A program made the translations under genes and the position numbers. 64,000 bases of DNA from an uncultured Pseudomonadota bacterium (lineage in GTDB: Bacteria > Babelota > Babeliae > Babelales > CAIQNR01). Positions 1,915 through 47,646 of this stretch are shown piece by piece. Under the pieces are notes generated by a model, which had not been told where the DNA came from, made no database searches, and saw only the letters and a program-made list of their open reading frames with translations. Numbering within the stretch: position 1 is the stretch's first letter; every line of letters begins with the position of its first letter. The DNA lies in contig CAZMYL010000001.1 of NCBI GenBank assembly GCA_964570505.1, positions 143,501 through 207,500 of the forward strand. The letters are read 5' to 3'.

Positions 1915-4900
1915 ATGAAATATTATTTAATAGTAGCTCTTTTGAGTTTATATTCTGATATTCATACCTTTACTGTTACAACTCAATCAAAAACACCAGT
2001 AAATACAACAAATCAATTATCAAATACTTCATCTTCAAATATTGTTGCTCTATCTACAACTTCTTCTGGTTTAAATTCTAATTCTCAAAATAGTTCTACA
2101 CAAAGTGCTCTTACTTTAAATTCTGGTGCTGTAAAAAATAATTCAAAAGTTGTAAAGCAGTGGAGCGTAAAATTAAATGATTCTGATATTCCTAGTTTAT
2201 ATACGAGTCCTGAATTTATAACTGTACAAAAAACTGTGTATCAACTTTCTCAATTGATGAATTCATTGATTGGAAATTTTAAATCAGTTCAACAACAAAA
2301 TAATCAAATTATATGGTCTGTAACCGCTCAATCGTCATCTGATACATTAAAAAATTCGAATCAAAATGCAATAAATTCTCAAGGATTTGATTATGTTAAA
2401 ACATATAGTACTTTTCAGTCTTATATGTCTGGGCAAAGTACCTCTTTTGTAGCTTCTTTTCAAAGTGTTTATACTATTTATCAAAATTTATTTCCCACAT
2501 TTAAAGAGTATATGCAAAGTAGTGGTAAAGAGGTAAGTGCAACATCTCAAGCTTATTTTACTAAGCTGCCATTTCAAAAAGATTCATATACAATTACATT
2601 ATTGCAATCAATAAGTTCTGCAATTATTAAATATTTGACTGCTCGAGCATCGCTTATATCTGTTCAAAATTATATTCAAAATAATGGATCATCAGATCTT
2701 TTTGGTTCATCTGGAGCATTTCAATATGGCGATATAATTATGTCAGCACTTAAAAAATTTATGGACGAAGAATATAAAAAAGTTACTTCTCTTCAAGGAT
2801 TAACAGCTGAAGAAAATGTTGAATTACAATCATATTATAATCTTATTTTTTCTGATTATATAAAACAAAAAAATACCCTTCTTATTCAAACAGTAGTTAA
2901 GCTTTTAAAATCATTATCTTATAAAAATCAAAGTAATCTTGTGAGTATCAATACTAATAATCAGCCTATTGCAACTAATGAATTGGAAATTTTTGTTAAT
3001 AATGCAGTTACCGCTGCTCAGGCTTATAATTCATTGAGCGAAGAAACAATTCAAAATAAATTTTTAGAGTACGATTCAATTGATAATGCATTAATAGAGA
3101 TTCATAGTCTTCTTGCTGATTTGTATTGTTTTAATAGCAAAATTCTTTTATTAAATATAGAAAAATCTGCTCAAGAAAGTGGTGATTTACCTTATTCAAT
3201 TAATGATAAAGATCAAATTCAGTTTCAAACAACTCTGCTTAATGCTTTTTATCTTTTTCAAAAAATGATTTATCAGGCTGCTCAACATGCTTCTTTGGCT
3301 AAAAAATCAGACTTATATACACTTTATAGTGGTCAATCGGCAATGGCAGAAAGTATTATTATTAATTGGCAAAATGGACAATCTTCATATGCAGTTCAAT
3401 CATATTCTAATGCACTATCTTATTTTAATGCTGTTTTAAGCGCTTCTCAAAAATATCAACTTACTTATTGTGTTAATTATATTATTAGCATTATTCAAAA
3501 AATTAATTTGGAGTATGAGCAAACTTTGTTTGGTTTGTATGTACAAAATCCTTCTTATATTTCAGCGCTTTCAACATATATTGATCATGCCTTATCGACT
3601 AATGTATCTACATATGAAGAAGATCAGGCTTTATGGTGTTCAATTTGGTATCCAGATGCTTCTCCTGTTGCGTCTTCCGTAAAAAATTCAAATATCTATC
3701 AAGGTTTTTATTTATTATCAACATCTGCGGTTCAAACAATTCAAAGTATTTTAGCAAGTGCTCAAACTAATCAATTAAAGCTTTCTGAAGAAAAAATTAT
3801 TGATTTGCAATATGCTGTTAAAACATTAAATTTTTTAGTAGCAGGTCTTCAGGAAATGCTTGTTCAAAGTTCTTTGTTTCCAGATAAGCAATCTGCGGAC
3901 GCTAATATGTATGTTAATTATTATACGCCAGCAGGGTATAGAAAGGTTCATACACAATATCAATCTATTATTAATGCTTTTGATGGAATTGATAAAGTTT
4001 ATCAAGAGTCTGCAACTGATACATTGAATTCTTATTGTCCTTTGCAATCTTTATTAGTAAATCAAAAAAATATTTCTAATTTTGGCATGCTTGCTCGTCT
4101 TCATTATGCACGATGGGCTTTTTGTATGGGTATGTATGCAATTAAATATGCATCAAACAAAGATTGTTTAAAAGATAAAACATGTATTGTATATCAAAAT
4201 ACAGCATATCAGTATGCATTATGCGCTCTTGTTGATGCTCAAAATATATACGCAGGTTTGGGGCAAAAAGCTATTGTTAATTATATTGAAGATCAAATTT
4301 TATCTATAAAAATGTATGCATCTGGATTGCTTAATACTGCAGACTTAGTTGTATCATCAGAAAATTCAAATATGTCAGATACCTCATGGTATGATGCATT
4401 ATATTATACACAAGTTGCTGCAGCAGTAGATTCTTCAGTATATGGTAATGAATATATTAAAAGGCTTGAAGATCTAATTAAAAAAGAAACTTCTAATATT
4501 TTTAAAAGAACGATTCCCGATATTTATAAAGCATATCTTCTTTACCAAGGGTATATTTGGGCTTTATTTATTAATGATAATCTTTTAAAAAATAGTTATG
4601 CATCGCAACTACAAAAAACTCTTGATGCATCTGTGATTGCTGTTAATGCTTTACAGAATCAGTCACAATCAAAAGATAATAGTTTGTTGAATATTGAAAA
4701 AATCAAAGAATTGCAAAAAATTCAGAATATTTTAGAAATTTTTGCTGTAAATCAGAACTATCAAAAAGGTATTTTTATCACGAGCGGAAATGATTTTATT
4801 ACTATTGCTGAAAATAAAGTGGTTGGAAGTTCTATTTTAAATAAAAAAATAACATTTTTTGGCGGTTCTACTCTCTTTTTATCCAATATAGATTATAGCT

Positions 4901-7374
4901 TAGCACAGCTTTATGTAAGTCAGGCAAATACAATCCTTCTTCAAATTCAAGATTATTTTAATGGTAAAGAGTATGATAAAATTACTGATGATTTGTTTCT
5001 TAAAATGATTGGTTATTATAACAATGCAATAGAAAATTATAGTAAATTAGGCCTTTCAAATAATGTAATTTCTACAAGTAAATTAGTAAGTCAGGCGATG
5101 GCTTTTTATTTTTATAGTTTAATAATTCCATCTGATTCTGTTACATCAGCAATTGATGCTCTTATGAAATCAAGTAGCTCAACTGCTGTTAAAAAAACAG
5201 GTTTAATTATAAAAAATATGGGATCTTTTGTTAAAGATGAAAATAAAAATTTTATGAATCAATCTTTATATATTTTACGTTATGCACAACAAGATTTACA
5301 AAATTTTAAAGAAATTGCAGATGAAAATGTTGCGAATTTTCAAAAACAAACTGACTCAAGTTTGTTAAATAATGCTTTAGAACAACAAAAATTTTATGTA
5401 AAAATGATAGAAGTTGCAAAAGGATTTGTAGGTTCGCAGGATTATAAAGGAATTCTTAAAGAGTTAGTAATTCCTTTGTATAAATCAACATTAGTAAATT
5501 CTGGATATAAACATATTTTTAAAACGATTGATAATGAAGTTCAGGATTATGCAGGACAAATAGAGATGCTGATAGATAAAGGAATATCTATTGGTGGCAC
5601 AATTTTAAAAACAAAATTTGTAGTAGATCAGCAAAAAAATACTGATGGGTCTGTTTCGCTTATATTAAAATCATATAATATTCCAACTTCTGCAGTTCCT
5701 CAATTTACAGGGGATATTATGAGTGCTTTGGTTGTTTATACGCAATATCAAAATTTTTTTCAGCAAACAGCTCAGCCTGTGCAAACAAGTAGTGGTGTTT
5801 TTTCTGCTATTCCAGATCAAAATTCATATAAAAAAGCTCAATATTTAATAAATGAAACTTATATTTCTGCAGCAAATAGTTACAATAATAAATTGTTAAA
5901 ACTTATTGATCCTTTAAAAAATATTCAAAATAAAACAGAAAAAAGATTTGATGATTATGCAGCAAGTTATTCTTTGGTGAATGATATATATCAAGAAATT
6001 TTTGCTTATTATTCTGTTCTTGATCAGGTTCAAAAAGCAACGAGTATAATTTCTTATGATGTTTCTGGACTCTATGTGAAAAAATTTCAAGCATATAGTG
6101 AAGATTTGCAATATTTCTTGATAGGTGATCCTTCTTCTCCTGACTATATTAAACGAGTTATAGAATCTGCTATGGCATATTTGTTGATATCAAATTATAC
6201 ATCAGATACTACTACGTGGAGTCAAATGCATAAAAAAGCTGGAGATCTTTATAAAAAAACAGCTGATTTAGCTTATACTTATACTATTTCTGCTCCATCT
6301 TATAATGGATATCCAAGTAAATCTGCTCATAATTTTCCAAAAAAAGGCGATTCTTTTAAGGTTCCATCATCATTAATATGTGAAAATTTTGTAGCATCTG
6401 CAGATCCATCGTCACCAATTATTTTTTATGCGTATCAAGATGCTCAAGGGTATTATCAGCAAGCTTTACAAAACTACCGCCAGTCATATGCATTGTTACG
6501 CAATAATCAATCAAAAGGAGAAATGACTGATTCATCAATTATGACTTGTTGGTCTTTGTATCTTATAGCTGGAATTAAAAATGCAATTCAGCGTATAGGA
6601 TTATTTTCCAGAAATGCTTTTGAACCAATTGGAACTTCAATATTGTGTGATTTTTCTAGTGATTTTATTAAGTTGCAATCTGAAGGTAAAAATAATGGAT
6701 TTTCATCTGCGCAACAAGGGTATTCTTCGTTAGCAGGAATGGGAAATCAGTTAACAAATAATTATGTAGGCAAACAGTATGCTATTATGAAAAAATTATT
6801 AATTGATTCATTAATTTATCTTTCTGGTGCAATTAATATTTGTAATTCGTTATCTAAATCTTTGGGAATTTCAACGGCTACAATTGTTGATAAAAAACTT
6901 GGAGCATCATATTTCTGTGCTCTCGCTCGTTATTTTCCTACATTAACTTGTATGACAGGATCGGATCTTTCAGGATTGCTGCTTTCAAAATATATATCAA
7001 ATCCAGCAGGGCTTTCGATTTCAGCAGATTTAAATATACAACAACAATATGCATTTTTATATTCAGATAGTTTTATTCAAACTCATGATTATATAATTAA
7101 TTCGTTATGTGGTAATCAAACTACAATGTCTACCAAAATGAAAATGCCAGAAAATGTTGTAGCTATGGCAAGTTACATATCGCAACTTTTTGGAATGGTG
7201 CGTACGGTCTATGCAAATGCATTTTTACCGGAATTGGTAAAGGCGGTTGATGATGCTGGTGCAACTGGCAAACCTGTAGCTTCTGCTGTTTCTGCATTAC
7301 AACAAAGTATTAATACAGATGTCACAACAGCTCAACAAAATATGTTAATAGATTCATCAGGATACGTTGGTTGA
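1915..7374 (+). CDS. giant exported protein, 1819 aa, no recognisable domain
   Basis: 5.46-kb uninterrupted ORF starting 35 nt after the previous gene. Signal-peptide-like MKYYLIVALLSLYSDIHTF is followed by an S/T/N/Q-rich ~60-residue linker and then a Q/N/S/Y/A-rich body. No catalytic or repeat motif seen. Confidence 0.8.
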   Translation: MKYYLIVALLSLYSDIHTFTVTTQSKTPVNTTNQLSNTSSSNIVALSTTSSGLNSNSQNSSTQSALTLNSGAVKNNSKVVKQWSVKLNDSDIPSLYTSPEFITVQKTVYQLSQLMNSLIGNFKSVQQQNNQIIWSVTAQSSSDTLKNSNQNAINSQGFDYVKTYSTFQSYMSGQSTSFVASFQSVYTIYQNLFPTFKEYMQSSGKEVSATSQAYFTKLPFQKDSYTITLLQSISSAIIKYLTARASLISVQNYIQNNGSSDLFGSSGAFQYGDIIMSALKKFMDEEYKKVTSLQGLTAEENVELQSYYNLIFSDYIKQKNTLLIQTVVKLLKSLSYKNQSNLVSINTNNQPIATNELEIFVNNAVTAAQAYNSLSEETIQNKFLEYDSIDNALIEIHSLLADLYCFNSKILLLNIEKSAQESGDLPYSINDKDQIQFQTTLLNAFYLFQKMIYQAAQHASLAKKSDLYTLYSGQSAMAESIIINWQNGQSSYAVQSYSNALSYFNAVLSASQKYQLTYCVNYIISIIQKINLEYEQTLFGLYVQNPSYISALSTYIDHALSTNVSTYEEDQALWCSIWYPDASPVASSVKNSNIYQGFYLLSTSAVQTIQSILASAQTNQLKLSEEKIIDLQYAVKTLNFLVAGLQEMLVQSSLFPDKQSADANMYVNYYTPAGYRKVHTQYQSIINAFDGIDKVYQESATDTLNSYCPLQSLLVNQKNISNFGMLARLHYARWAFCMGMYAIKYASNKDCLKDKTCIVYQNTAYQYALCALVDAQNIYAGLGQKAIVNYIEDQILSIKMYASGLLNTADLVVSSENSNMSDTSWYDALYYTQVAAAVDSSVYGNEYIKRLEDLIKKETSNIFKRTIPDIYKAYLLYQGYIWALFINDNLLKNSYASQLQKTLDASVIAVNALQNQSQSKDNSLLNIEKIKELQKIQNILEIFAVNQNYQKGIFITSGNDFITIAENKVVGSSILNKKITFFGGSTLFLSNIDYSLAQLYVSQANTILLQIQDYFNGKEYDKITDDLFLKMIGYYNNAIENYSKLGLSNNVISTSKLVSQAMAFYFYSLIIPSDSVTSAIDALMKSSSSTAVKKTGLIIKNMGSFVKDENKNFMNQSLYILRYAQQDLQNFKEIADENVANFQKQTDSSLLNNALEQQKFYVKMIEVAKGFVGSQDYKGILKELVIPLYKSTLVNSGYKHIFKTIDNEVQDYAGQIEMLIDKGISIGGTILKTKFVVDQQKNTDGSVSLILKSYNIPTSAVPQFTGDIMSALVVYTQYQNFFQQTAQPVQTSSGVFSAIPDQNSYKKAQYLINETYISAANSYNNKLLKLIDPLKNIQNKTEKRFDDYAASYSLVNDIYQEIFAYYSVLDQVQKATSIISYDVSGLYVKKFQAYSEDLQYFLIGDPSSPDYIKRVIESAMAYLLISNYTSDTTTWSQMHKKAGDLYKKTADLAYTYTISAPSYNGYPSKSAHNFPKKGDSFKVPSSLICENFVASADPSSPIIFYAYQDAQGYYQQALQNYRQSYALLRNNQSKGEMTDSSIMTCWSLYLIAGIKNAIQRIGLFSRNAFEPIGTSILCDFSSDFIKLQSEGKNNGFSSAQQGYSSLAGMGNQLTNNYVGKQYAIMKKLLIDSLIYLSGAINICNSLSKSLGISTATIVDKKLGASYFCALARYFPTLTCMTGSDLSGLLLSKYISNPAGLSISADLNIQQQYAFLYSDSFIQTHDYIINSLCGNQTTMSTKMKMPENVVAMASYISQLFGMVRTVYANAFLPELVKAVDDAGATGKPVASAVSALQQSINTDVTTAQQNMLIDSSGYVG

Positions 7375-15408: not shown

Positions 15409-16242
15409 ATGAAAGTAATAAAAAAAGGATTTTTGAATTTTAAATATTTTTTATTAATTTCTTTTGTTGTTTTTTTTGGTTCTATTTTTTTTATTGATAA
15501 TCATATTTTTTTTGTTGCGCGTACTACTTTTATATATCCCTTTTTATCTTTAGAGCATTGGGCAGTTAGTACTATTAAAGATTGGTCACTTTATATAGAA
15601 TCAAAACATACACTTATAGTAGAACGAAATATTTATCGCAATCGTTCTCAAGAGCTTCAAGGTGCTTTACTTGCATTAAAAGCTCAGAATATCTTCTTAA
15701 AAGAAACCAAAGAGCTTATTGAGTATAAAAATAAGTATGAAAATAATGAAAATGCAAAGCTTGCAAAAGTGCTTTTAAAACATTGCGACAAGGATGAATA
15801 TTTTTTTCTTATAAATGTAGGTGAAAAAGATGGTATTACAATCGACAGTCCTGTTGTTTATAAAAATTGCTTATTAGGTAAAGTTATAGAAGTTTATTAC
15901 TGTTTTAGTAAGGTCCTTTTGATTGTTGATCATCGATGCAAGGTGGCTTGTTTTTGTGAAAAAACAGGAGCATCGGGTATTTATGAAGGACGTTGCAGTA
16001 TGGACCATGGAGCGCTTGTTCATGTAAGTCATATGCAAAATTTGCATAATGGAGATACTCTTTTTTCTGCAGGAGAAGGGCTTGTGTTTCCGTATGGTTT
16101 TGGTGTTGGAACAATTGAATCGTTTGAGCTTGAGGGTATCCAATATAATATTAAAGTTAAACCATTGGTTGATTTTTCAACTATTGGTTATTGCTATGTA
16201 CTACCATCTCAAATATCTCAAAAAATAAAGCAATCGTTATAA
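15409..16242 (+). CDS. mreC: rod shape-determining protein MreC
   Basis: N-terminal TM segment, a coiled-coil segment, then the MreC beta-domain pattern (GEKDGITIDSPVVYKNCLLGKVIEV...GDTLFSAGEGLVFPYGFGVGTI). Starts 2 nt after dusB. Confidence 0.65.
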   Translation: MKVIKKGFLNFKYFLLISFVVFFGSIFFIDNHIFFVARTTFIYPFLSLEHWAVSTIKDWSLYIESKHTLIVERNIYRNRSQELQGALLALKAQNIFLKETKELIEYKNKYENNENAKLAKVLLKHCDKDEYFFLINVGEKDGITIDSPVVYKNCLLGKVIEVYYCFSKVLLIVDHRCKVACFCEKTGASGIYEGRCSMDHGALVHVSHMQNLHNGDTLFSAGEGLVFPYGFGVGTIESFELEGIQYNIKVKPLVDFSTIGYCYVLPSQISQKIKQSL

Positions 16243-36441: not shown

Positions 36442-37215
36442 TTGAAAATTTCATTAGAAGAAATTAATAAAAAAGTTCAGAAAATTATTGTGAATGCGGG
36501 AGATATTTTAGTCAGTTTTTATCAAAAAAATCTTATTTTTAAGTATAAAACAGATGGTTCTTTTTGTACTCAAGCTGATATTGAAAGCGAAAAATATTTA
36601 ATGCAAGAGCTTTCACAATTGATTCCAGGAGCTGGTTTTTATGCTGAAGAATCGGGTGTTAAAGAATCTTTAAATAATTATGTTTGGATAATTGATCCTC
36701 TTGATGGTACTTCTAATTTTTCTATAGGAATATCATATTTTTGCATTTCCATTGCATTAACTTATAACAATGAGCCTGTTTTGGGGTGGATTTATAATCC
36801 TATTTCTAAAGAGTTATTTTATGCTCAAAAAGGAAATGGAGCTTATTGTAATGACAGATTGCTTATAATTGAAAAAAAGAAATTAATTAAGCATACGAGA
36901 ATAGCTTTTGGTATTTCTAATAAGGATTTTTTTATTATTTCTAAAGTATTACCATATGTGACAGGTATTCGTATCTGTGGTGCTTCTGCTTTAGATTTAG
37001 CTTATGTAGCTGCAGGTAAATATGATGGAGTCTTTTTAACTCAGTTTAAGTGGTGGGATGTTGCAGCAGGAATTTTATTGATAAGTGAATCTCAAGGTTC
37101 AAGTGTTACTTTTGAGGGTTTTTCTGTTGATTTGAGTTCTAAAAGCTTGATTAGTACAAATTTATTTTTGATTAATCCCTTTCTTGAGCTTATTGGTAAT
37201 GATAATTCGATTTGA
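36442..37215 (+). CDS. inositol monophosphatase family protein (SuhB-like)
   Basis: IMPase motifs AEESG, WIIDPLDGTSNF and WWDVAAG. TTG start. Confidence 0.8.
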   Translation: MKISLEEINKKVQKIIVNAGDILVSFYQKNLIFKYKTDGSFCTQADIESEKYLMQELSQLIPGAGFYAEESGVKESLNNYVWIIDPLDGTSNFSIGISYFCISIALTYNNEPVLGWIYNPISKELFYAQKGNGAYCNDRLLIIEKKKLIKHTRIAFGISNKDFFIISKVLPYVTGIRICGASALDLAYVAAGKYDGVFLTQFKWWDVAAGILLISESQGSSVTFEGFSVDLSSKSLISTNLFLINPFLELIGNDNSI

Positions 37216-37826: not shown

Positions 37827-37850
37827 TAAGGCACTTTTTAAAGTGCCTTA
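37827..37850. terminator. bidirectional hairpin terminator after rpsT
   Basis: TAAGGCACTT TTTA AAGTGCCTTA followed by T6. The core is almost identical to the hairpin at 27952-27976. Confidence 0.7.
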
Positions 37851-38256: not shown

Positions 38257-40059
38257 TTATTCCTCGTCTGCATACTGTAATTCTTTTTCAGAGAATGATA
38301 GAGTTTGCGGTTGATATTCGTAATTGATGTTTCTTTTTTCCATTACATTTTTATATTTTTTTAAAAAATCTTTTGCAATTGTTATAGGAAGTTCAGTGCC
38401 ACCTGTTTTTTCTGTTAAAATAACTAAAGTCATTGCAGGTTGTCCTTTATAACTAAAATTTGCAGCAAGCCAACCATGTTCTAAAAAATCATCGCTTATT
38501 TTTTTCTTATGAAGTCCGCTCATTTGAGCAGTACTTGTTTTTGATCGAATAATAAAATCATTTAAATATGAAAGTCTTCGTGCTGTTCCTTTAGTAGTTA
38601 CAGCATGCATTGCTTGTTGTAAAAATTTTCTTGTTTCTGGGCGTATAGCAAGTGGTTGCTTTTCAATTGGCATGTCTTCTGTTATTCGCATAGAAGTTAA
38701 ATATCCTGTTTCTACTGCTGCTACCATCCGTGCCATTTGTAATGGAGTTACTAAAAGAAAGCTTTGCCCAATTGATGCAGAAAAAGTTTCTCCAAGCCAC
38801 CAACGTTCCCCTTTTACCCTTTTTTTCCATTCTTTTGTTGGTATAAGGCCAGTATCTTCTTGTAGAGCTGTATTTGTTTTTTCGCCAAGACCAAATATAT
38901 GCGCATATCGTGCAATAGTATCAATATCAAGATGTCGAGCCATATCAAAAGGAGGAATGTTGCATGAATGGGCAAATGCTTGTTTGAGAGTCAATTCTCC
39001 ATGGCCTTGTTTGCGAGCGCAATGGTAATGTCGTTCGTTTAATACACTATATCCTCCACAATACCATGTTGATTGGTGATTGACGATTCCTGTTTCAAGT
39101 GCAGCAGAAAAGGTGACAAGTTTAAAAATAGAACCGGGTGGATACACTGCTTTGCATATTCTGTTTAAGAAAGATTTTTGTTCCTGAAGGGTGTTCCAAT
39201 CTTTTTTGTTGATTGCAGTTAAAAACATATTTGGATCAAAACTAGGTCGAGAAAGAACAGCTCTTAAGCTCCCTGTAAATGGATCCATCAATATAAAAAT
39301 GCCAGCTTTATCCAAAGGAAAAACTTCTTCGGCAATTTTCTGTAATTCAAGATCTAATGTTGTAATAATATCGTATCCTGGATGATTTTTTTCTATTTCT
39401 TGTTCTGCTATGTGGCTGCCCATTGAGTTAACTATCCTCATAAGTGAACCAGCTTTTCCTCTTAGTTCTTTTTCGTATATTTTTTCAATACCCATTTTAC
39501 CACCAACAGAACTTGAATTCTCTGATTCATTATCAAGATGACCAAGGTATCCTAATAAGTGGCATGCTAGTGTTGTATGTGGATAGTAACGTTTGAATGT
39601 TGTTTCAATAAAAATATTAGGATTATTAGAAAATATCTCTGCAATTTTACTTAATTGCTCAAATGATGCATCAGGGATAAGAGTATATTTTTTAGAATGT
39701 CTTTCTGCTCTTTGAATATCTTTTTTTTTATCAATAAGGCTTTCATTAAGTAAGTTATTAATAATTAAAAAAGTTTCTTCTTGCTCAAGTGTTAATTTTT
39801 TATTACCTGATCCCTTCCAATAAATAGAAGTAACAGGTCTATTTGTAGCAATAATAGAGCCATAGGTATCTAAAATATTTCCTCGAGGCGAAAGAAGGGT
39901 TTCATAGCGTGTATAATTTTTATTACTCTGAATTGCAAAGGATTCTCCAAGATAAATTTGTAAATAAAAAAGACGTACAATAACAATCATTAAACTTAAG
40001 GTAGTTAATTGTAAAAGCCATTTTTTTTTAGATATAAAAAGAGCAGAAACTTTTGACAT
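38257..40059 (-). CDS. mrdA: penicillin-binding protein 2 (elongasome transpeptidase)
   Basis: N-terminal TM helix and a PBP dimerisation domain. The transpeptidase motifs are SIFK (SxxK), SCN (SxN) and KTS in place of K(T/S)G, in SKTSTAQ. Confidence 0.8.
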   Translation of the reverse strand: MSKVSALFISKKKWLLQLTTLSLMIVIVRLFYLQIYLGESFAIQSNKNYTRYETLLSPRGNILDTYGSIIATNRPVTSIYWKGSGNKKLTLEQEETFLIINNLLNESLIDKKKDIQRAERHSKKYTLIPDASFEQLSKIAEIFSNNPNIFIETTFKRYYPHTTLACHLLGYLGHLDNESENSSSVGGKMGIEKIYEKELRGKAGSLMRIVNSMGSHIAEQEIEKNHPGYDIITTLDLELQKIAEEVFPLDKAGIFILMDPFTGSLRAVLSRPSFDPNMFLTAINKKDWNTLQEQKSFLNRICKAVYPPGSIFKLVTFSAALETGIVNHQSTWYCGGYSVLNERHYHCARKQGHGELTLKQAFAHSCNIPPFDMARHLDIDTIARYAHIFGLGEKTNTALQEDTGLIPTKEWKKRVKGERWWLGETFSASIGQSFLLVTPLQMARMVAAVETGYLTSMRITEDMPIEKQPLAIRPETRKFLQQAMHAVTTKGTARRLSYLNDFIIRSKTSTAQMSGLHKKKISDDFLEHGWLAANFSYKGQPAMTLVILTEKTGGTELPITIAKDFLKKYKNVMEKRNINYEYQPQTLSFSEKELQYADEE

Positions 40060-40982
40060 TATTGCTGCTTTCTTTTGATCATATTTTTAATAGGGTGTAA
40101 CGTATCGCATATCGTAGTTAATTCTTCTAATGAAATATGTGTGTATTTTTCTGTACTAGATAAGCTTTGATGTCCTAAAAGTTCTTGTACTGATCGTAAG
40201 TCGACACCAGCATTAAGTAAATGTGTAGCAAAAGAATGTCTGATTTTATGAGGAGTAATTATTTTTTTTATTGGTAAAAAGGTTCCAAACATCCCAATAA
40301 TACGTTGTATAGAACGGGGGTCTAAAGGTTCGTTTCTGCAATTTACAAATAATTTTTCTGAAAGAGAATGGCTTTTAGGGCGTTCGTGTTTAAGGTATTC
40401 AAGCATTTTTTCGTGTGCTTTTGACCCAAAAAGAACAATACGTTCTTTTCTTCCTTTTCCCATAATTCGAATGATTTTATTGTTAAAATCTATATTGCCA
40501 ATACTAATATTACAAAGTTCTGAGCAGCGGATTCCTGTTGCATAGAGCACTTCAAAGATTGCTTTGTCTCTTAAAGGTCTTTGAGTGGGAAGATCTTCAT
40601 TTTTTATAGTGTCAAGTAGGTAAAAGATTTCATCAACACTTAAATAAGTAGGTAATTTTTTATCTATTCTTGGTCGTTGTACATTAAGTTGTAAATTAAC
40701 ATCGATTGATTTTAAAAATTTTTTAAGAGAAGTGAAGGATGAAATTTTTCTTGCAACAGAATTTTTATCAATTTTTTTATTAAATAATTGAATGAAGTAT
40801 CGTTCAATTATTTGTGTAAAATTAAAATCTTTTTTTTCTGTATAATTAACTGTGTTCCAAAATGTTATAAATAATTTAAAATCACTATTATATGATCTGC
40901 AAGTGTTTTTACTAAGATTTTTTTCTATTTCTATATAGGTTAAAAAATCATCCGAATATTTTTGAAATTCAATAATTGTCAT
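40059..40982 (-). CDS. tyrosine recombinase XerC/XerD family
   Basis: 307 aa with an N-terminal SAM-like domain. Catalytic residues are present in ATGIRCSEL, HKIRHSFATHLL and LGHQSLSSTEKYTH. Its stop overlaps the mrdA start by 1 nt. Confidence 0.8.
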   Translation of the reverse strand: MTIIEFQKYSDDFLTYIEIEKNLSKNTCRSYNSDFKLFITFWNTVNYTEKKDFNFTQIIERYFIQLFNKKIDKNSVARKISSFTSLKKFLKSIDVNLQLNVQRPRIDKKLPTYLSVDEIFYLLDTIKNEDLPTQRPLRDKAIFEVLYATGIRCSELCNISIGNIDFNNKIIRIMGKGRKERIVLFGSKAHEKMLEYLKHERPKSHSLSEKLFVNCRNEPLDPRSIQRIIGMFGTFLPIKKIITPHKIRHSFATHLLNAGVDLRSVQELLGHQSLSSTEKYTHISLEELTTICDTLHPIKNMIKRKQQ

Positions 40983-41054: not shown

Positions 41055-43802
41055 TTATAAAATTCCATAATCTTTGCATCTTCGATGAATGGAAGATCTA
41101 TTAACTCCAAGAAACAGTGCAATTTTATTTTGATTTTTAAATTTATTCCATAGCATTGCCATTATCATTGGATCTTTTAAGGCATGTTTTCCTAAGCGTG
41201 CAGCCTCTGCTAGTTTTGGATCAGAAATATTGTATGCAGCATCAAAGGTAGTTTCTTCATAAACATCCATTTTTTTTGATTTTGCAAGTAATAAATTTTT
41301 AATATTTTCTTTTATGTCATATAAACTTGCAGGACGCTGAGAAATTAATATTTCACGATCTTTTTCTGAAAGTGTTAATAATTTATTAGTTGGATTTTCT
41401 GCGTTAAGTGATTGTTCTGTAAAGTTTTCTATGAGTGTATTAATTTCATTAGTAGGTAATGTTAATAAAGTTGGAAGAGTTAATGATGTATTTCGTAGTT
41501 CTTTTAATAACATTTCTGAAAAAAGGCCTTCTTTTACAAGATGTTCTAAATTTTGATTAGTAGAGCATATAATTCTTACTTCACTAAACATTTTACGTTC
41601 AGTTTTTAGAATTTTATAAAATCCATAGCGTATGAATGTTGCAAGATTGTTTTGAGATTCTAAATCTAAAAAATGAATATTTTTTATAAAAAGTGTTCCT
41701 TTCTTATTTAATTTTTCAAGAAGAGGTTCTTTTGCAGATTCTGTTAAAGAGTTTATTGCAAAAAGTTGATTAATTCCAAATAAAGAAATTCCTATTTCTT
41801 TAGATGTAATTGGTGCTTGTAAATTTAGGATATGTAAATTTTCTTTAAGAGATATGTGATGGATAAGTTCAACCATAGAAATAATATCCTTTTCAGGAAT
41901 ATTAATAAGAAGTGCTTTTTTTGTAAGAGCTACTTTTAAAAGTTCTATTTTAAAATTTAGTAAAGTAGAACCATTTCCTGGGATTAAATTATTAATGAGT
42001 TTCCCTGATTCTGTTGTTTCTAAGTATAATAAATAATCCCAATTGCTAGGATTATTTATATGATCTATGAGTTCTTCTACAATATCGGAAAGTTCTGGAT
42101 AATAAACAGTAAAGATAACACTTGTATTTTCTGGGTGAGGAATTCCTGATATAACAAATCGTTTGTTATAAATATTTTTTGTAAACTGTAATTGAGGGCC
42201 CTTGTATTTTTCTATTTTTTCGGCCATTTCAAGTAATAATTTTGTAGTTGGATCACCTTTTTCTTTATTTGGATTGATTCCTAATATTTTATTTGCATCT
42301 TCATTGGCAAATGAAAATATTTTATTTTTATAAAGTATAATTCCTATAGAATTGCCTTTATTTATTTTTATAAATGATTGAAGGCTTTCTTTATATCGAG
42401 TAATTTCTTGGTGTTTTGTATAAAGTTCTTCAGTGATTTCTTTTCGTTCTTTAAGAAGCTCATTTAAATTTCTATTTTGTAGTAAATTTACAATTTTTGC
42501 TGCGTAAGTTGTAAAAATAATCATTTCATCACGTTCAATATTTGTATAGAATTTTTTTCTTCCAGAATTTTTATTAATGATGATATAGCCAATAATTCTA
42601 TCTTGATCATACATTGGTAAAAATACATCAGCATTAATATCATTTAAAAAAGTTAATAAACGTTGTGTAAAATTACTTGGTTCATGAAAATGGGTGTATG
42701 CAATTTCATCGTAAATAAGAATTTGAATAAGGTTTTCTGAATTATTTGATTGAGAAAGTATTTCAAAGTTTGCTTGAGTTATAAAATTTTCAATAGTTGT
42801 TTGTAGCAAGTTATGTTGTTTATAAAAATAATCTTTTTCTGTTGAATGAGGAGTAAAGATAATTTTTAGGTTTATTTTTTGTTGATCGATTTTAAAAGCT
42901 TTGTTGAAAAATTGCTGGGAAAGAATTTTTATTTCTGTGATGTTTGTTATTTGTCCAAGTTCTTCTAACACTATTTTAAAATCATAAAGAAAATTAAATC
43001 TTTTTGAATCATATACATGACTATGTACATTTAAAAATCTAAGTCCAATAATAGTTTTAAAAAAATAAAAAAGAGCAAAAGCTAAGAATATTTCAGAAAG
43101 AATAAGGCCTTCTGTGTGAAAAGAAAATGTATTTATTATAGGAAATACTTGCCAAATATTTGCAAGTAAAATTGGAATTAAAAAATAAACAATACATGTT
43201 TTTACTTGTTCAGATAAAATTTTAGGTAATGGCTCTGATTGTATTATTGAAATACCTTCAATAATGGCATATGGCATTAGAACTAAAAGATTATAACGTA
43301 CAATAAAAGTAATAATTTTATATTTTGTAAGATAATTTATTAAATCAACAAATCCATTGTCTTGAAAAAAAGCATAAATAATAAAGATTAATAATGGTAT
43401 CAGGAATAAATTGGTGATAATAAAAAAAATAAGATTAAGATTCTTCTTTAGATTTGTTTTTTCATTGATTTTGAAAGATTGTATAAAAAGTATAAAGCTA
43501 TAATACATAATAAGATAAGTTGCATATCCAATACAAATAATTCCCATAGTAAAATTTTGACTTGGAAATTTAAAATTTTTGTAACATATATACGAAAACC
43601 ACGTTAAATTTTCTATTAAAGAAGTTATAATAATTATAAGTAAAGTGATTGCTGGAGCTTTATTTTTTGATAATTGTGAAATTTTTCTTAAAAAAGGAAA
43701 AAATAATGCTATTTTAAATATAATTAAAGACGCTTCAATCCATAACATGACATAATGGTTGTTTAAAAAATTTGTTAATATTGTTAAAAAATTATATATC
43801 AT
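41055..43802 (-). CDS. membrane-anchored sensor/regulator: multi-TM N-domain, GAF-like and PAS-like domains, a degenerate sigma-54-activator AAA+ module and a Fis-type HTH
   Basis: 915 aa with about 8 TM helices in the first ~270 aa. GAF-like ...FLPMYDQDRIIGYIIINKNSGRKKFYTNIERDEMIIFTTYAAKIV. Residues ~628-800 align with NtrC-type AAA+ domains, but the Walker A, Walker B and GAFTGA motifs are replaced. The C-terminal HTH_8-like sequence is IALFLGVNRSSIHRRCKDYGI. Confidence 0.65.
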   Translation of the reverse strand: MIYNFLTILTNFLNNHYVMLWIEASLIIFKIALFFPFLRKISQLSKNKAPAITLLIIIITSLIENLTWFSYICYKNFKFPSQNFTMGIICIGYATYLIMYYSFILFIQSFKINEKTNLKKNLNLIFFIITNLFLIPLLIFIIYAFFQDNGFVDLINYLTKYKIITFIVRYNLLVLMPYAIIEGISIIQSEPLPKILSEQVKTCIVYFLIPILLANIWQVFPIINTFSFHTEGLILSEIFLAFALFYFFKTIIGLRFLNVHSHVYDSKRFNFLYDFKIVLEELGQITNITEIKILSQQFFNKAFKIDQQKINLKIIFTPHSTEKDYFYKQHNLLQTTIENFITQANFEILSQSNNSENLIQILIYDEIAYTHFHEPSNFTQRLLTFLNDINADVFLPMYDQDRIIGYIIINKNSGRKKFYTNIERDEMIIFTTYAAKIVNLLQNRNLNELLKERKEITEELYTKHQEITRYKESLQSFIKINKGNSIGIILYKNKIFSFANEDANKILGINPNKEKGDPTTKLLLEMAEKIEKYKGPQLQFTKNIYNKRFVISGIPHPENTSVIFTVYYPELSDIVEELIDHINNPSNWDYLLYLETTESGKLINNLIPGNGSTLLNFKIELLKVALTKKALLINIPEKDIISMVELIHHISLKENLHILNLQAPITSKEIGISLFGINQLFAINSLTESAKEPLLEKLNKKGTLFIKNIHFLDLESQNNLATFIRYGFYKILKTERKMFSEVRIICSTNQNLEHLVKEGLFSEMLLKELRNTSLTLPTLLTLPTNEINTLIENFTEQSLNAENPTNKLLTLSEKDREILISQRPASLYDIKENIKNLLLAKSKKMDVYEETTFDAAYNISDPKLAEAARLGKHALKDPMIMAMLWNKFKNQNKIALFLGVNRSSIHRRCKDYGIL

Positions 43803-43906
43803 GAAATTTTCTATTTATTTTAAACGTTTTACGTAATTGACTTTTATACAAATATACTTACATTATTGTAATAATATTTACAAAAACAGCAAAGCTAAGA
43901 GGTTTT

Positions 43907-43990
43907 ATGAAAAAAAGTGTTTCATTGTTGTTCTTATTTTTAATTATTACAATAATTTATTCATTTACACCCCCAACTCCTCCTTATTGA
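43907..43990 (+). CDS. possible 27-aa hydrophobic mini-ORF
   Basis: SD AAGAGG lies 5 nt before the ATG. The product is MKKSVSLLFLFLIITIIYSFTPPTPPY*. It may be a small membrane peptide or a relic signal-peptide exon. Not in the ORF track. Confidence 0.25.
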   Translation: MKKSVSLLFLFLIITIIYSFTPPTPPY

Positions 43991-44053
43991 TTTATTAAGT
44001 TTTAGTTTCATGATTTGGCGATTGTTTTAAGTTGCATCTATATTGAAAATATC

Positions 44054-44728
44054 ATGAAATACAGTGTTGATCCATCAATTTCTTTTGAGGTTGTTTTAAA
44101 AAAACTTAGATCGGAGACTCTTTCTATGTCTGAGCCGATCTCTTTTTTTTTAATTGAGCGCTTTGGTAGGGATCCTTATATTGTTCTTGTAAGTTGTATT
44201 TTAAGTTTAAGGACCAAGGATAAGATAACTTTAGAAGCTAGTTTGAGGCTTTTTAGTATTGCAAAAACGCCTCACGATATGGTTTTAATACCACTTCAAG
44301 TTTTGGAAAAATTAATTTATCCCGTAGGTTTTTATCGTCGCAAAGCTGAGCACATTCAAAAAATAAATAAAATTCTAATAGAAGTTTATGGCGGGCAGGT
44401 GCCAAATCTTAAAGAACTCCTCTTAAATTTGCCTGGGGTTGGCATAAAAACAGCAAATCTTGTACTTGGATTGGGTTTTAAAATTCCTGCTTTATGTGTT
44501 GATATTCATGTTCATAGAATTGCAAATAGATTAGGATTGGTTTATACCAAAAACCCTGAACAAACAGAGCAAGCTCTTATGAAAATTTTTCCTAAAGAGC
44601 ATTGGATAGAGCTTAATAGGCTTCTTGTTATGTGGGGGCAAAATATATGTACTCCTCTATCTCCTTATTGCTCAAAATGTATAATTTCTTCTTTATGTAA
44701 AAAAAATAGTGTTTTAAAACAAAGATAA
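44054..44728 (+). CDS. nth: endonuclease III (HhH-GPD DNA glycosylase with a 4Fe-4S cluster)
   Basis: HhH LPGVGIKTANLVL, a catalytic-region VDIHVHRI and a cluster loop CTPLSPYCSKCIISSLC. ATG at 44054 (the track begins at TTG 44015). Confidence 0.8.
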   Translation: MKYSVDPSISFEVVLKKLRSETLSMSEPISFFLIERFGRDPYIVLVSCILSLRTKDKITLEASLRLFSIAKTPHDMVLIPLQVLEKLIYPVGFYRRKAEHIQKINKILIEVYGGQVPNLKELLLNLPGVGIKTANLVLGLGFKIPALCVDIHVHRIANRLGLVYTKNPEQTEQALMKIFPKEHWIELNRLLVMWGQNICTPLSPYCSKCIISSLCKKNSVLKQR

Positions 44729-45369: not shown

Positions 45370-45394
45370 TATGTATAGAAAGATGGGGTTATCT

Positions 45395-46114
45395 ATGAAA
45401 AAATTTTTATTGTTATTATGCGTTTCGCTTTGCGCAACCCGTGTTTACTGTGCTCCCACTGATGATAAATATAGTTGGCTTACAAGGCTTGGTATGTTTT
45501 TAAGAAATAGTCCTCAGCAAATTTTGACACAGTTAAAACAAGAAAATTTGTATACTGATTTATGGCTAGAAGAATTACCTGCTCCAGAAGGTATCGTATA
45601 TAGAGTATATCGTATTATTAAGGTAAGTAATGAATTGTCGATAGCTTTTCATGTAGGAAATATATTTATTGGCGATGATGGTATTAGTGTTCGTACTGAG
45701 ACTTTTGGGGGACAAGTATTAGATCATGCTCAGCAAGCCGAAGTAGATTGTGAAACAATTATAAGGTGTATTGCATGGAATCGTCCTCCGCAGCAATTTA
45801 TTGAATTTTTGAGGAAAGTTTTTTCTAAAGAATTAGATAGTAAAACAATGACAGAGATTCAAAAGCAATTGTATAATATAAAAAACCCTGAGGAGAGCAA
45901 AGGATTTGTTTTTACGCAAAACAAAAGGTGTAACTCAATTATTGATGAAGAATTAGCTCAAGCTGCTCAATGTGGGCAACGGATGATGGTTAGAGTCGCT
46001 GCAAAGGCTGCAGCTCTTTATGGATTGTATTCTTTAAGAAATGAAATTGCTACAGGTGTTAAAAATGGTACTTCATCTCTTGTGGCTGCAGTTGCAAGTG
46101 GACTAGGTAAGTAA
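45395..46114 (+). CDS. secreted/tail-anchored paralogue 1 of a three-gene tandem family
   Basis: MKKFLLLLCVSLCATRVYCA signal peptide. The C-terminus ...AALYGLYSLRNEIATGVKNGTSSLVAAVASGLGK is shared with the next two genes, and the middle is divergent. The track start is 45371. Confidence 0.7.
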   Translation: MKKFLLLLCVSLCATRVYCAPTDDKYSWLTRLGMFLRNSPQQILTQLKQENLYTDLWLEELPAPEGIVYRVYRIIKVSNELSIAFHVGNIFIGDDGISVRTETFGGQVLDHAQQAEVDCETIIRCIAWNRPPQQFIEFLRKVFSKELDSKTMTEIQKQLYNIKNPEESKGFVFTQNKRCNSIIDEELAQAAQCGQRMMVRVAAKAAALYGLYSLRNEIATGVKNGTSSLVAAVASGLGK

Positions 46115-46139
46115 TGATATATGGCTTAAGAGGTTATCT

Positions 46140-46880
46140 GTGAAGAAATTTTTATTGTTAGTATGTATTTTTGTTTGTGCAACTCGTGTTTACTGTGCTG
46201 CCACTGATGATAAATATGGTTGGTTTACAAGGCTTGGTATGTACTTAACAAAGAGTCCTCAGCGAATTGCGAAAGAGTTAAGAAAACAACGTTTGTATAC
46301 TCATTTATTGATAAAAAAATCTTCCGAAAATTCTGAATATCCAAGAAAATCTAATGGTTATCATTTATATCATTTTTTTGAAAATAGTAATGTTGGTATA
46401 TCGAAAAGAATGATAGTTGAACAATATGGTACTGTTGATGTTGAAGAATCTTCTGGGTTCTATATCGTTAACCCTAAAGAATTTCAAGAAAATTCTAGCT
46501 TAATAATATCTACTATTGCGCTGTATTATCCTCAGAAATTTATTAGTTTTTTGAGAGAAGTTTTTTCTGAAAAAGATTCTACTTTAGACGACTTCTCTAA
46601 AAGCAACAGTTGGGCTGAAATCTGTCGGAAAAAGAAAATAGATACGCTTGATTATAGTGCACAGCAACAGATTATTAGTGAAAATAATAAAAAGTGTAAC
46701 TCAATTATTGATAAAGAATTGTCTCGAGCTACTCAATGTGGAGTTGCTGCAACGGTTGGAGTTGCTGCAGCGGGTGCAGCACTTTATGGATTGTATTTTT
46801 TAAGAAATGAAATTGCTACAGGTGTTAAAAATGGTACTTCATCTCTTGTGGCTGCAGTTGCAAGTGGACTAGGTAAGTAA
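46140..46880 (+). CDS. secreted/tail-anchored paralogue 2
   Basis: GTG start 6 nt after SD AAGAGG. MKKFLLLVCIFVCATRVYCA signal peptide and a Gly/Ala-rich hydrophobic C-terminal segment. Identical to paralogue 3. Confidence 0.7.
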   Translation: MKKFLLLVCIFVCATRVYCAATDDKYGWFTRLGMYLTKSPQRIAKELRKQRLYTHLLIKKSSENSEYPRKSNGYHLYHFFENSNVGISKRMIVEQYGTVDVEESSGFYIVNPKEFQENSSLIISTIALYYPQKFISFLREVFSEKDSTLDDFSKSNSWAEICRKKKIDTLDYSAQQQIISENNKKCNSIIDKELSRATQCGVAATVGVAAAGAALYGLYFLRNEIATGVKNGTSSLVAAVASGLGK

Positions 46881-46905
46881 TGATATATGGCTTAAGAGGT
46901 TATCT

Positions 46906-47646
46906 GTGAAGAAATTTTTATTGTTAGTATGTATTTTTGTTTGTGCAACTCGTGTTTACTGTGCTGCCACTGATGATAAATATGGTTGGTTTACAAGGCT
47001 TGGTATGTACTTAACAAAGAGTCCTCAGCGAATTGCGAAAGAGTTAAGAAAACAACGTTTGTATACTCATTTATTGATAAAAAAATCTTCCGAAAATTCT
47101 GAATATCCAAGAAAATCTAATGGTTATCATTTATATCATTTTTTTGAAAATAGTAATGTTGGTATATCGAAAAGAATGATAGTTGAACAATATGGTACTG
47201 TTGATGTTGAAGAATCTTCTGGGTTCTATATCGTTAACCCTAAAGAATTTCAAGAAAATTCTAGCTTAATAATATCTACTATTGCGCTGTATTATCCTCA
47301 GAAATTTATTAGTTTTTTGAGAGAAGTTTTTTCTGAAAAAGATTCTACTTTAGACGACTTCTCTAAAAGCAACAGTTGGGCTGAAATCTGTCGGAAAAAG
47401 AAAATAGATACGCTTGATTATAGTGCACAGCAACAGATTATTAGTGAAAATAATAAAAAGTGTAACTCAATTATTGATAAAGAATTGTCTCGAGCTACTC
47501 AATGTGGAGTTGCTGCAACGGTTGGAGTTGCTGCAGCGGGTGCAGCACTTTATGGATTGTATTTTTTAAGAAATGAAATTGCTACAGGTGTTAAAAATGG
47601 TACTTCATCTCTTGTGGCTGCAGTTGCAAGTGGACTAGGTAAGTAA
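46906..47646 (+). CDS. secreted/tail-anchored paralogue 3 (identical copy of paralogue 2)
   Basis: Identical 246-aa translation and, as far as I can read, identical nucleotides at a 766-nt offset. Confidence 0.7.
   Translation: MKKFLLLVCIFVCATRVYCAATDDKYGWFTRLGMYLTKSPQRIAKELRKQRLYTHLLIKKSSENSEYPRKSNGYHLYHFFENSNVGISKRMIVEQYGTVDVEESSGFYIVNPKEFQENSSLIISTIALYYPQKFISFLREVFSEKDSTLDDFSKSNSWAEICRKKKIDTLDYSAQQQIISENNKKCNSIIDKELSRATQCGVAATVGVAAAGAALYGLYFLRNEIATGVKNGTSSLVAAVASGLGK

Follow-up and report, generated by a model that had tools for sequence, protein, structure and literature searches.

What remains of a transcription regulator when the motifs that define its class have been replaced? The question is raised by a gene on the minus strand of a 64,000-nucleotide stretch of contig CAZMYL010000001.1 (positions 143,501 to 207,500; the whole stretch is called the window below), from a genome of the Dependentiae (TM6/Babelota). 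The gene is one intact open reading frame (ORF) at 41055-43802, with an ATG start and 915 codons for amino acids, in DNA of about 30% G+C. Its product, here called the regulator, resembles the bacterial enhancer-binding proteins (bEBPs) that activate sigma-54-dependent transcription. We show the domain architecture of the product and the gene cluster in which it is conserved, and that the motif loss is family-wide, that the family is restricted to Dependentiae, and that every domain is under purifying selection. We think it probable that the regulator is a membrane-integral one-component transcription regulator, descended from a bEBP and no longer a sigma-54 activator.

The predicted domain order, from the N to the C terminus, is seven transmembrane (TM) helices, a GAF-like fold, a helical spine, a PAS-like fold, a bEBP-type AAA+ domain, and a Fis-type helix-turn-helix (HTH). 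An alignment of 39 family members, with 32-89% identity to the window protein, served both as a search profile and as the basis of an AlphaFold2 model of the whole protein (mean predicted local distance difference test score, pLDDT, 79.6). The gene and its parts, each with its evidence, are as follows:

41055-43802, minus strand: whole regulator ORF, comprising the 7TM, GAF-like, spine, PAS-like, pseudo-AAA+, and HTH parts (ORF call, Pfam, AlphaFold2, family search).
43032-43757, minus strand: 7TM domain, residues 16-257, family-specific (hydropathy, loop charges, AlphaFold2).
42474-42995, minus strand: GAF-like alpha/beta domain, residues 270-443 (AlphaFold2 topology, Foldseek, weak Pfam GAF_2).
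42363-42473, minus strand: long conserved helix, the putative signalling spine linking the GAF-like and PAS-like domains, residues 444-480 (AlphaFold2, conservation).
42093-42362, minus strand: PAS-like domain, residues 481-570, in the order strand-strand-helix-helix-strand-strand-strand (AlphaFold2, Foldseek).
41973-42092, minus strand: highly conserved linker into the AAA+ domain, residues 571-610, WDYLLYLETTxSGxLINxLIPG (family alignment).
41268-41972, minus strand: bEBP-type AAA+ domain (alpha/beta subdomain and lid) without catalytic motifs, residues 611-845 (Pfam PF00158 and PF14532, PDB profile, Foldseek).
41877-41900, minus strand: Walker A replacement IPEKDIIS, residues 635-642 (profile alignment).
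41751-41783, minus strand: L1 loop remnant LFGINQLFAIN, without GAFTGA, residues 674-684 (profile alignment).
41679-41693, minus strand: Walker B replacement LFIKN in place of hhhDE, residues 704-708 (profile alignment).
41496-41522, minus strand: arginine-finger replacement FSEMLLKEL in place of FREDLYYRL, residues 761-769 (profile alignment).
41058-41222, minus strand: predicted four-helix DNA-binding domain of Fis/NtrC type, residues 861-915, with the HTH NKIALFLGVNRSSIHRRCKDYGI (NtrX/NtrC1 alignment, NCBIfam, AlphaFold2).

The descent of the central domain from the AAA+ domain of sigma-54 activators is supported by sequence, profile, and structure comparisons. Pfam Sigma54_activat (PF00158) matches residues 645-773 of the window protein with profile positions 40-166 out of 168 (E = 2.6e-10; 40.7 bits against a cut-off of 20.2), leaving the Walker A end of the profile unmatched, and PF14532 matches the domain as well. 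NCBIfam adds weak, sub-threshold matches to NtrX, PspF, DhaR, TyrR, NtrC, and others, with scores far under the equivalog cut-offs (for TyrR, 43 bits vs 576). In a phmmer search of the PDB, residues 621-914 align with full-length NtrX (5m7n), C-terminal HTH included, and the 39-member profile finds NtrC4 (3dzd) at E = 2.9e-20 and PspF and NtrC1 at about 1e-17. Foldseek comparison of the model with the PDB returns bEBPs exclusively: NtrX is first by E-value, followed by PspF, NtrC1, FlrC, FleQ, and ZraR with target-normalised template-modelling (TM) scores of 0.6-0.7 over about 240 residues (0.65-0.70 for PspF, NtrC1, and FlrC). An original prediction, made from the window's sequence without database searches, had claimed this ancestry from a block-by-block alignment; the blocks and their coordinates (residues 628-800, nucleotides 41403-41921) are correct, and the claim is borne out by the Pfam, PDB profile, and Foldseek matches.

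We then compared the motifs across 110 distinct family proteins, taken from 80 loci in about 80 Dependentiae genomes. The Walker A motif GESGTGKE corresponds to I635-S642 (IPEKDIIS), with I641 at the position of the P-loop lysine; a P-loop at this position is found in none of the 110 proteins, while D639, inside the former P-loop, is invariant in all of them. The L1 loop LFGHEKGAFTGA corresponds to LFGINQLFA, where the family consensus carries a two-residue deletion, and a regular-expression search of the same proteins finds no GAFTGA-like string. The Walker B motif LFLDE corresponds to L704-N708 (LFIKN): position 707 is K, Q, or E, N708 is present in 105 of 110, and no family protein in the set has the DE of Walker B. 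FREDLYYRL is aligned with F761-L769 (FSEMLLKEL), both arginines being gone (S762 and E768); the first arginine-finger position is serine in 94 proteins and the second glutamate in 87. The sensor-II arginine is aligned with Y828, a position occupied by Q or H in most family members. Since replacement is fixed in 110 out of 110 proteins, it represents the ancestral state and not a local lesion. To judge from its sequence, the AAA+ domain is ATPase-dead, as had been predicted, with Walker A, Walker B, GAFTGA, both arginine fingers, and the sensor-II arginine all replaced, and it very probably lacks canonical ATP binding.

The family is sharply delimited. A search of 5.8 billion proteins gives 86 clusters, nearly all of about 900 residues, and a scan of one genome per species of the Genome Taxonomy Database (GTDB) finds relatives in 181 genomes. 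Where the labels of these genomes are informative, all read Dependentiae, Babeliales, or TM6; the others are generic labels on genomes with the same synteny and similar G+C. Family members score 657 bits or higher against the profile, and the closest canonical bEBP reaches 56. No transitional forms, such as family proteins that keep the motifs or canonical bEBPs joined to a 7TM domain, were found in the profile search of 5.8 billion proteins, which covered word-sharing candidates.

Against the closest orthologue, a protein of 88% identity encoded on a 790-kb contig of a Candidatus Babeliales metagenome-assembled genome (MAG), by which the window is assigned to Dependentiae, the ratio of nonsynonymous to synonymous substitution rates (omega) is 0.094 overall. 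It is 0.10 in the alpha/beta subdomain of the pseudo-AAA+ domain (0.10-0.15 across the AAA+ domain), 0.03-0.04 in the spine, PAS-like domain, and linker, and zero in the HTH, which shows no nonsynonymous change; the 7TM domain, at 0.15, is joint-highest among the domains analysed. Conservation across the phylum ranks the HTH first, followed by the linker, the spine, the pseudo-AAA+, PAS-like, and GAF-like domains, and finally the 7TM domain, with 33 columns invariant across the 39 members. In nearly all of the approximately 80 genomes sampled, the ORF is unbroken and varies little in length. The substituted "dead" positions are themselves fixed, which favours a new constraint over drift. On these estimates the degenerate AAA+ domain is under purifying selection, and the regulator appears to be functional.

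Out of 82 loci, 29 have a tandem second family gene between the regulator and xerC (for example L013:12827-15544, L011, L017, L019, L025, and L045; loci are numbered with the prefix L), and one, L072, has three tandem family genes. The tandem copy evolves faster. In most genomes it is 35-54% identical to the first copy, reflecting older duplications; in L042, L066, L070, and L072 it is 67-98% identical, reflecting recent ones. The first copies are orthologues of one another, and every single-copy gene, that of the window included, falls in their lineage. The tandem paralogues equally lack the ATPase motifs, and heteromers of the regulator with its paralogue are conceivable.

Many MAG records that contain the cluster are titled "uncultured Pseudomonadota bacterium" (L004, L005, L006, L010, L014, L019, L021, L038, and others). 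The G+C content (0.32-0.43) and synteny of these loci match those of Dependentiae-labelled loci, and the titles look like generic or wrong taxonomic labels.

The N-terminal region is predicted to anchor the protein in the membrane. Hydropathy places TM segments at residues 16-38, 48-73, 87-107, 120-148, 163-181, 195-223, and 230-257, and AlphaFold2 models the helices at pLDDT mostly >85, so the predicted membrane tethering holds, with seven helices instead of the approximately eight first proposed. The loop charges fit an N-out/C-in topology, which would place the remainder of the regulator in the cytoplasm. The exit of TM7 (GLRFLN..H) is strongly conserved, with R255 invariant. The 7TM domain has no Pfam match in the 39 members, and among the 25 most frequent of the 40 matched families there is no TM-domain family at E ≤ 1 and no match to the 7TMR-DISM, 5TMR-LYT, MASE, or MHYT models. 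A 7TM profile searched against 1.84 billion representatives gives 395 matching clusters at E ≤ 1e-3. All 150 of the matches listed are of family-like length or shorter, and of four that we checked, three are contig-truncated family members and one is a full-length member of 1053 residues.

One feature of this domain distinguishes the window protein. In TM3 (residues 88-109; 43476-43541, minus strand) the family consensus is IRIxWAxxxxxYQxLxLFxESL and the window sequence is ICIGYATYLIMYYSFILFIQSF. Polar residues kept by most of the family are changed in the window protein and its closest relatives (R90C, W93Y, Q101Y, and E108Q), which suggests that the sensing site has been altered or relaxed in these relatives.

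For the region between membrane and AAA+ domain, a second AlphaFold2 model (residues 256-610; pLDDT 71.6) was compared with known structures. Foldseek matches it to phytochrome PAS-GAF-PHY modules and to a LOV-PAS-histidine kinase protein (E about 1e-5, probability 1.0, low TM-scores). In Pfam, GAF_2 matches four out of 39 members weakly (best E = 0.025) and PAS_8 one. As modelled, the region consists of GAF-like and PAS-like domains joined by a long helical spine, with marginal sequence-level support; the GAF-like and PAS-like segments of the original prediction are supported at the level of fold only, and at the level of sequence the Pfam matches are weak. The modelled spine helices span residues 421-443 and 446-480, and the spine has a mean majority-residue frequency of 0.72 and an omega of 0.03. 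The linker that follows (conservation 0.76) contains the invariant residues Y590, L594, T597, G600, and P608.

At the other end of the protein, the C terminus aligns to its last residue with the DNA-binding domains of NtrX and NtrC1 (phmmer against the PDB), and AlphaFold2 places four helices within residues 862-912. The HTH is the most conserved part of the protein (0.79; dN, the nonsynonymous divergence from the 88% orthologue, is zero). NCBIfam Fis matches weakly (E = 0.01-0.017), as does Pfam HTH_8 (five out of 39 members, best E = 0.02). The end-to-end alignment and the conservation bear out the Fis-type C terminus that had been proposed, and point to DNA binding by it. Overall, the Pfam scan that had been suggested as a check gives a significant match for Sigma54_activat, weak matches for HTH_8, GAF, and PAS, and no match to a multi-TM sensor model.

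We compared k-mers in 70 nth-regulator intergenic regions with those in 567 control regions. The only enriched words are −10-like (GTATAAT) and resemble a ribosome-binding site (GGAGG); the GTATAAT element, a −10 element of sigma-70 type, is found upstream of the regulator in 33 out of 70 regions, compared with 56 out of 567 controls. A palindrome, ACGTT-N11-AACGT, appeared as a candidate operator in 14 "intergenic" regions and was rejected, as it sits in a coding ORF of 67 amino acids. We read this ORF as rpmB (ribosomal protein L28), from its size and its position beside the Pfam-annotated L28 gene of L001. The conserved 30-nucleotide palindrome inside it, TGTGnACGTTyGGrTAnAyCCAACGTTTnAC (L014:15967-15998 and 13 other loci), is covered by no Rfam family and is probably just conserved coding sequence.

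Several results bear on sigma-54 itself. In the window the −24/−12 consensus is not enriched (32 matches with ≤2 mismatches, compared with 25 ± 4 expected, none of them exact). In 192 kb of intergenic DNA from family loci there are no exact matches and four with one mismatch (2.3 expected), all four of which break the conserved GG. A tblastn search with an Escherichia coli RpoN query found no rpoN in 1.64 Mb (the window and 81 loci of about 20 kb, about 2% of each genome), with nothing below E = 3.9; the best match to the RpoN C terminus falls in unrelated ORFs. The window contains rpoD, and this gene and the enriched −10 element are indirect evidence that the regulator acts on sigma-70 RNA polymerase. 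We found no statement in the literature on sigma-54 or rpoN in Dependentiae. Most small-genome endosymbionts lack sigma-54, and in the bEBPs studied activation falls sharply and is mostly lost when GAFTGA is changed, especially at the central Phe and Thr (PMC3162934). Homologues of EBPs whose GAFTGA is defective, some from sigma-54-free genomes, are sigma-70-dependent or presumed so (PMC3162934), and atypical EBPs of this kind act with sigma-70 (PMC6158489, PMC3162934). We infer that the regulator is sigma-54-independent. The core of the original prediction is thus supported, and its further suggestion, that the protein works without sigma-54 in a genome possibly devoid of rpoN, has indirect support.

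Atypical EBPs (TyrR, PhhR, DhaR, HupR, HsfA, NtrX, and VpsR) are an established category (PMC6158489, PMC3162934). By its descent and GAFTGA loss the regulator fits this category, and on five defining features it falls outside the functional bEBPs. It is not categorically new, sigma-54-independent EBP relatives being already known; it is a clean and extreme case of taxonomic importance. It differs from the atypical EBPs in that the loss is complete, Walker A included, and the nucleotide site that NtrX and TyrR retain is absent, with no P-loop in any member. The input region consists of a novel 7TM domain and GAF-like and PAS-like domains instead of a receiver or ACT/PAS domains, and the protein is predicted to be integral to the membrane, conserved phylum-wide, and encoded in a fixed gene cluster.

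The best match over the AAA+ domain and HTH, in both sequence and structure, is NtrX of Brucella abortus (5m7n, 5m7o, and 5m7p), an atypical member of the NtrC family with a variant GAFTGA, described as a repressor at one promoter (PMC6158489). NtrX, a receiver-containing soluble response regulator, was crystallised with ATP and ADP (titles of the PDB entries), whereas the regulator has neither P-loop nor receiver and has a 7TM-GAF-PAS input. A further structural match, VpsR of Vibrio cholerae (7v2b), lacks GAFTGA, carries ND instead of DE in a degenerate Walker B, and activates sigma-70 RNA polymerase (PMC6158489). VpsR is soluble, contains a receiver, and responds to cyclic di-GMP; the regulator has additionally lost Walker A, both arginine fingers, and sensor II. 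TyrR/PhhR, DhaR, and HupR also descend from bEBPs, carry a defective GAFTGA, and work independently of sigma-54 (PMC3162934, PMC6158489). These proteins are soluble and have other N-terminal sensor domains, unlike the multi-TM regulator. Automatic annotation at the Joint Genome Institute puts some family members under a TyrR-type name. TyrR keeps its ATP-binding site, which is used for hexamerisation.

With the canonical bEBPs (NtrC1 and NtrC4 of Aquifex, PspF, ZraR, FleQ, and FlrC) the regulator shares the AAA+ fold and C-terminal Fis-type HTH, the alpha-0 helix "LIG.S" (LIPG.G in the regulator), the ELFG segment, the sensor-I (A/S)TN, and the lid, but it has none of the motifs that define ATP-driven sigma-54 remodelling. 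Two further likenesses are of arrangement. In ToxR/CadC-type proteins, too, one polypeptide combines a membrane sensor and a DNA-binding domain that works at the membrane; these proteins begin with a winged helix of OmpR type, cross the membrane once, and carry their sensor in the periplasm, with no homology to the regulator and the opposite domain order. In the GAF-helix-PHY region of phytochromes, tandem GAF/PAS-like folds also stand on a long helical spine, but identity is about 10%, TM-scores are 0.2-0.3, and there is no evidence of a chromophore pocket, so that the likeness is one of fold and arrangement only.

The neighbourhood of the gene is as follows:

40059-40982, minus strand: XerC/D-type tyrosine recombinase, 72 bp downstream of the regulator, conserved neighbour.
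38257-40059, minus strand: penicillin-binding protein 2 (PBP2; MrdA-type transpeptidase), its start overlapping the xerC stop, conserved neighbour.
37827-37850, no strand assigned: terminator-like bidirectional hairpin, probable end of a regulator-xerC-mrdA-orf102 unit.
43803-44014, no strand assigned: divergent intergenic region between regulator and nth, presumed to hold both promoters.
44015-44728, plus strand: endonuclease III (nth), divergent, conserved neighbour in 66 out of 79 loci.

The same-strand order of regulator, xerC/D, and mrdA is found in 65 out of 79 loci; wider flanks (gidA, lgt, dnaG, and rpoD) are shared with the closest relatives only. The hairpin, a perfect 10-bp stem (TAAGGCACTT/AAGTGCCTTA) flanked by T-runs on both strands, is the only convincing terminator and follows a small ORF (orf102) after PBP2; beyond it lies an inositol-monophosphatase-family gene (36442-37215, plus strand). 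The short gaps, the overlapping stop and start, and the position of the terminator only after orf102 suggest that regulator, xerC, mrdA, and orf102 are co-transcribed.

The window also contains housekeeping genes, as is typical of reduced genomes in bacteria (rpoD, dnaG, gidA, lgt, ftsH, mreC, a murein ligase gene, dnaX, engA, and tolQ/tonB-like genes). The mreC gene (15409-16242, plus strand) sits 22 kb from mrdA, and no rodA follows PBP2. The separation of mreC from mrdA, with PBP2 fixed beside xerC, is an unusual arrangement of elongation genes. At 45371-47646 (plus strand) there are three tandem paralogous genes (247, 246, and 246 codons) without a Pfam match, whose products have a signal-peptide-like N terminus and a common C-terminal GVKNGTSSLVAAVASGLGK; the products of the second and third are identical (766-bp unit). 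In the 88% relative (L001/L003) the equivalent stretch, from a small ORF beside nth to gidA, is about 190 bp with no called gene, which indicates a recent lineage-specific expansion. Two large ORFs on the plus strand, of 1819 (1915-7374) and 555 (212-1879) amino acids, have no Pfam match at E ≤ 1e-4 and could encode effector-type or surface proteins, of a kind reported to be abundant and uncharacterised in Dependentiae.

In the mechanism that we consider probable, the 7TM domain and the cytoplasmic GAF-like/PAS-like pair on its conserved spine would sense a membrane or cytoplasmic cue, in a layout like that of dimeric signalling proteins such as phytochromes; the regulator may likewise signal as a dimer. 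The highly conserved linker would pass the signal into the former AAA+ domain, which would neither hydrolyse ATP nor contact sigma-54 and would be kept as a structural relay or oligomerisation module. The relay would position the C-terminal HTH on DNA and so repress or activate transcription by the sigma-70 (RpoD) holoenzyme. DNA binding, partner polymerase, oligomeric state, signal, and targets are what we infer from the comparisons above; the targets may include the regulator's own cluster (xerC-mrdA and/or nth).

Several points weigh against this proposal. Its support comes from sequence and model comparison, and the loss of nucleotide binding is read from sequence alone. The HTH family models match weakly. 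No conserved palindrome or operator was detected upstream of the regulator by an inverted-repeat scan of 72 regions or by the k-mer comparison of 70, and a candidate in the window, TTGTAA-N6-TTACAA (of TGT-N10-ACA type; 43863-43886), is broken in the 88% orthologue and was taken as a chance occurrence. An HTH on a 7TM anchor would need either DNA at the membrane or release of the domain. The conserved synteny may reflect inheritance of an operon and not regulation, and Dependentiae genomes may yet contain rpoN.

A bolder version would make the family the master developmental or host-sensing regulator of Dependentiae. The 7TM domain, as a receptor specific to the phylum, would read a host-derived or envelope cue, and a ring or dimer of dead AAA+ domains, sometimes a heteromer with the tandem paralogue, would act purely as a conformational switch that directly controls the genes for chromosome resolution and wall elongation (xerC-mrdA) and times the unusual growth and division cycle of these parasites inside their host cells. 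We regard this as rather doubtful; if true, it would be the first bEBP descendant known to work without any nucleotide, from within the membrane.

The fixed linkage and the missing operator would also suit a protein that is no gene regulator but a structural tether. Its HTH would bind a chromosomal site, or DNA generally, and the 7TM anchor would keep the chromosome fixed to the envelope, so that Xer recombination or segregation of the chromosome is linked with PBP2-dependent wall synthesis. The linkage to xerC/D and mrdA persists in 65 out of 79 loci at only 38-47% protein identity phylum-wide, in spite of variable wider flanks; the HTH hardly varies, and no operator is detectable upstream of the regulator's own gene. 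However, linkage alone is no proof of shared function, GAF-like and PAS-like modules on a conserved spine are typical of regulated signal transducers and not of passive tethers, and all characterised relatives with the AAA+ domain and Fis-type HTH are transcription factors (PMC6158489). We consider a tether unlikely.

The geometry problem of a membrane-bound DNA binder would be solved in another way if a signal triggered regulated proteolysis near residue 260 and so freed a latent soluble GAF-PAS-AAA+-HTH regulator, until then sequestered at the membrane by the 7TM domain, a sub-variant of the sensor-regulator proposal. The conserved junction after TM7, with invariant R255, and the FtsH proteases encoded nearby in the window and its relatives are consistent with this. 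The conserved junction is, however, equally expected from conformational coupling; no cleavage motif, of site-2-protease type or other, was identified, and no soluble members without TM helices were seen, the short matches that we checked being contig-truncated N-terminal fragments. Release by cleavage seems to us distinctly improbable.

It is highly improbable that the regulator is still a sigma-54 activator, through non-canonical contacts or through a mixed ring in which a partner, for instance the tandem paralogue, is competent for ATPase activity. Family members carry the public annotation "sigma 54-interacting transcriptional regulator" and 29 out of 82 loci offer a second family gene, but the same motifs are missing from the paralogues, GAFTGA, Walker A, and the arginine fingers occur in none of the 110 family proteins, and no sigma-54 promoter consensus was found nearby (in the window and the 192 kb of family-locus intergenic DNA). 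Finally, the idea that a former bEBP gene is drifting to loss, which the wholesale loss of catalytic motifs and the AT-rich, reduced genome might suggest, is refuted by the intact frames, the omega of 0.09, the 33 invariant columns, and the fixation of the substituted positions (D639 in 110/110, N708 in 105/110).

The membrane-integral, sigma-54-independent regulator that we favour bears on how these genomes are read. The public names "sigma 54-interacting transcriptional regulator" and "transcriptional regulator of aromatic amino acid metabolism" mislead for this family, and could falsely imply a sigma-54 regulon in Dependentiae genomes. For the bEBPs and AAA+ proteins generally it is an end-point case, in which the scaffold persists and other residues have become fixed at all five catalytic or sigma-54-contact elements, and it lets one ask what role an AAA+ fold has after its motor function is lost. 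The Dependentiae, a widespread group of obligate protist parasites, have very few transcription regulators; in Babela massiliensis only five are predicted (PMC4378268). The regulator is probably among the few gene regulators that these reduced bacteria have retained, and the phylum-wide conservation and strong purifying selection of a protein of about 900 residues make it a prime candidate for a central one. The regulator also offers a concrete handle for experiments on the control of gene expression in the phylum.

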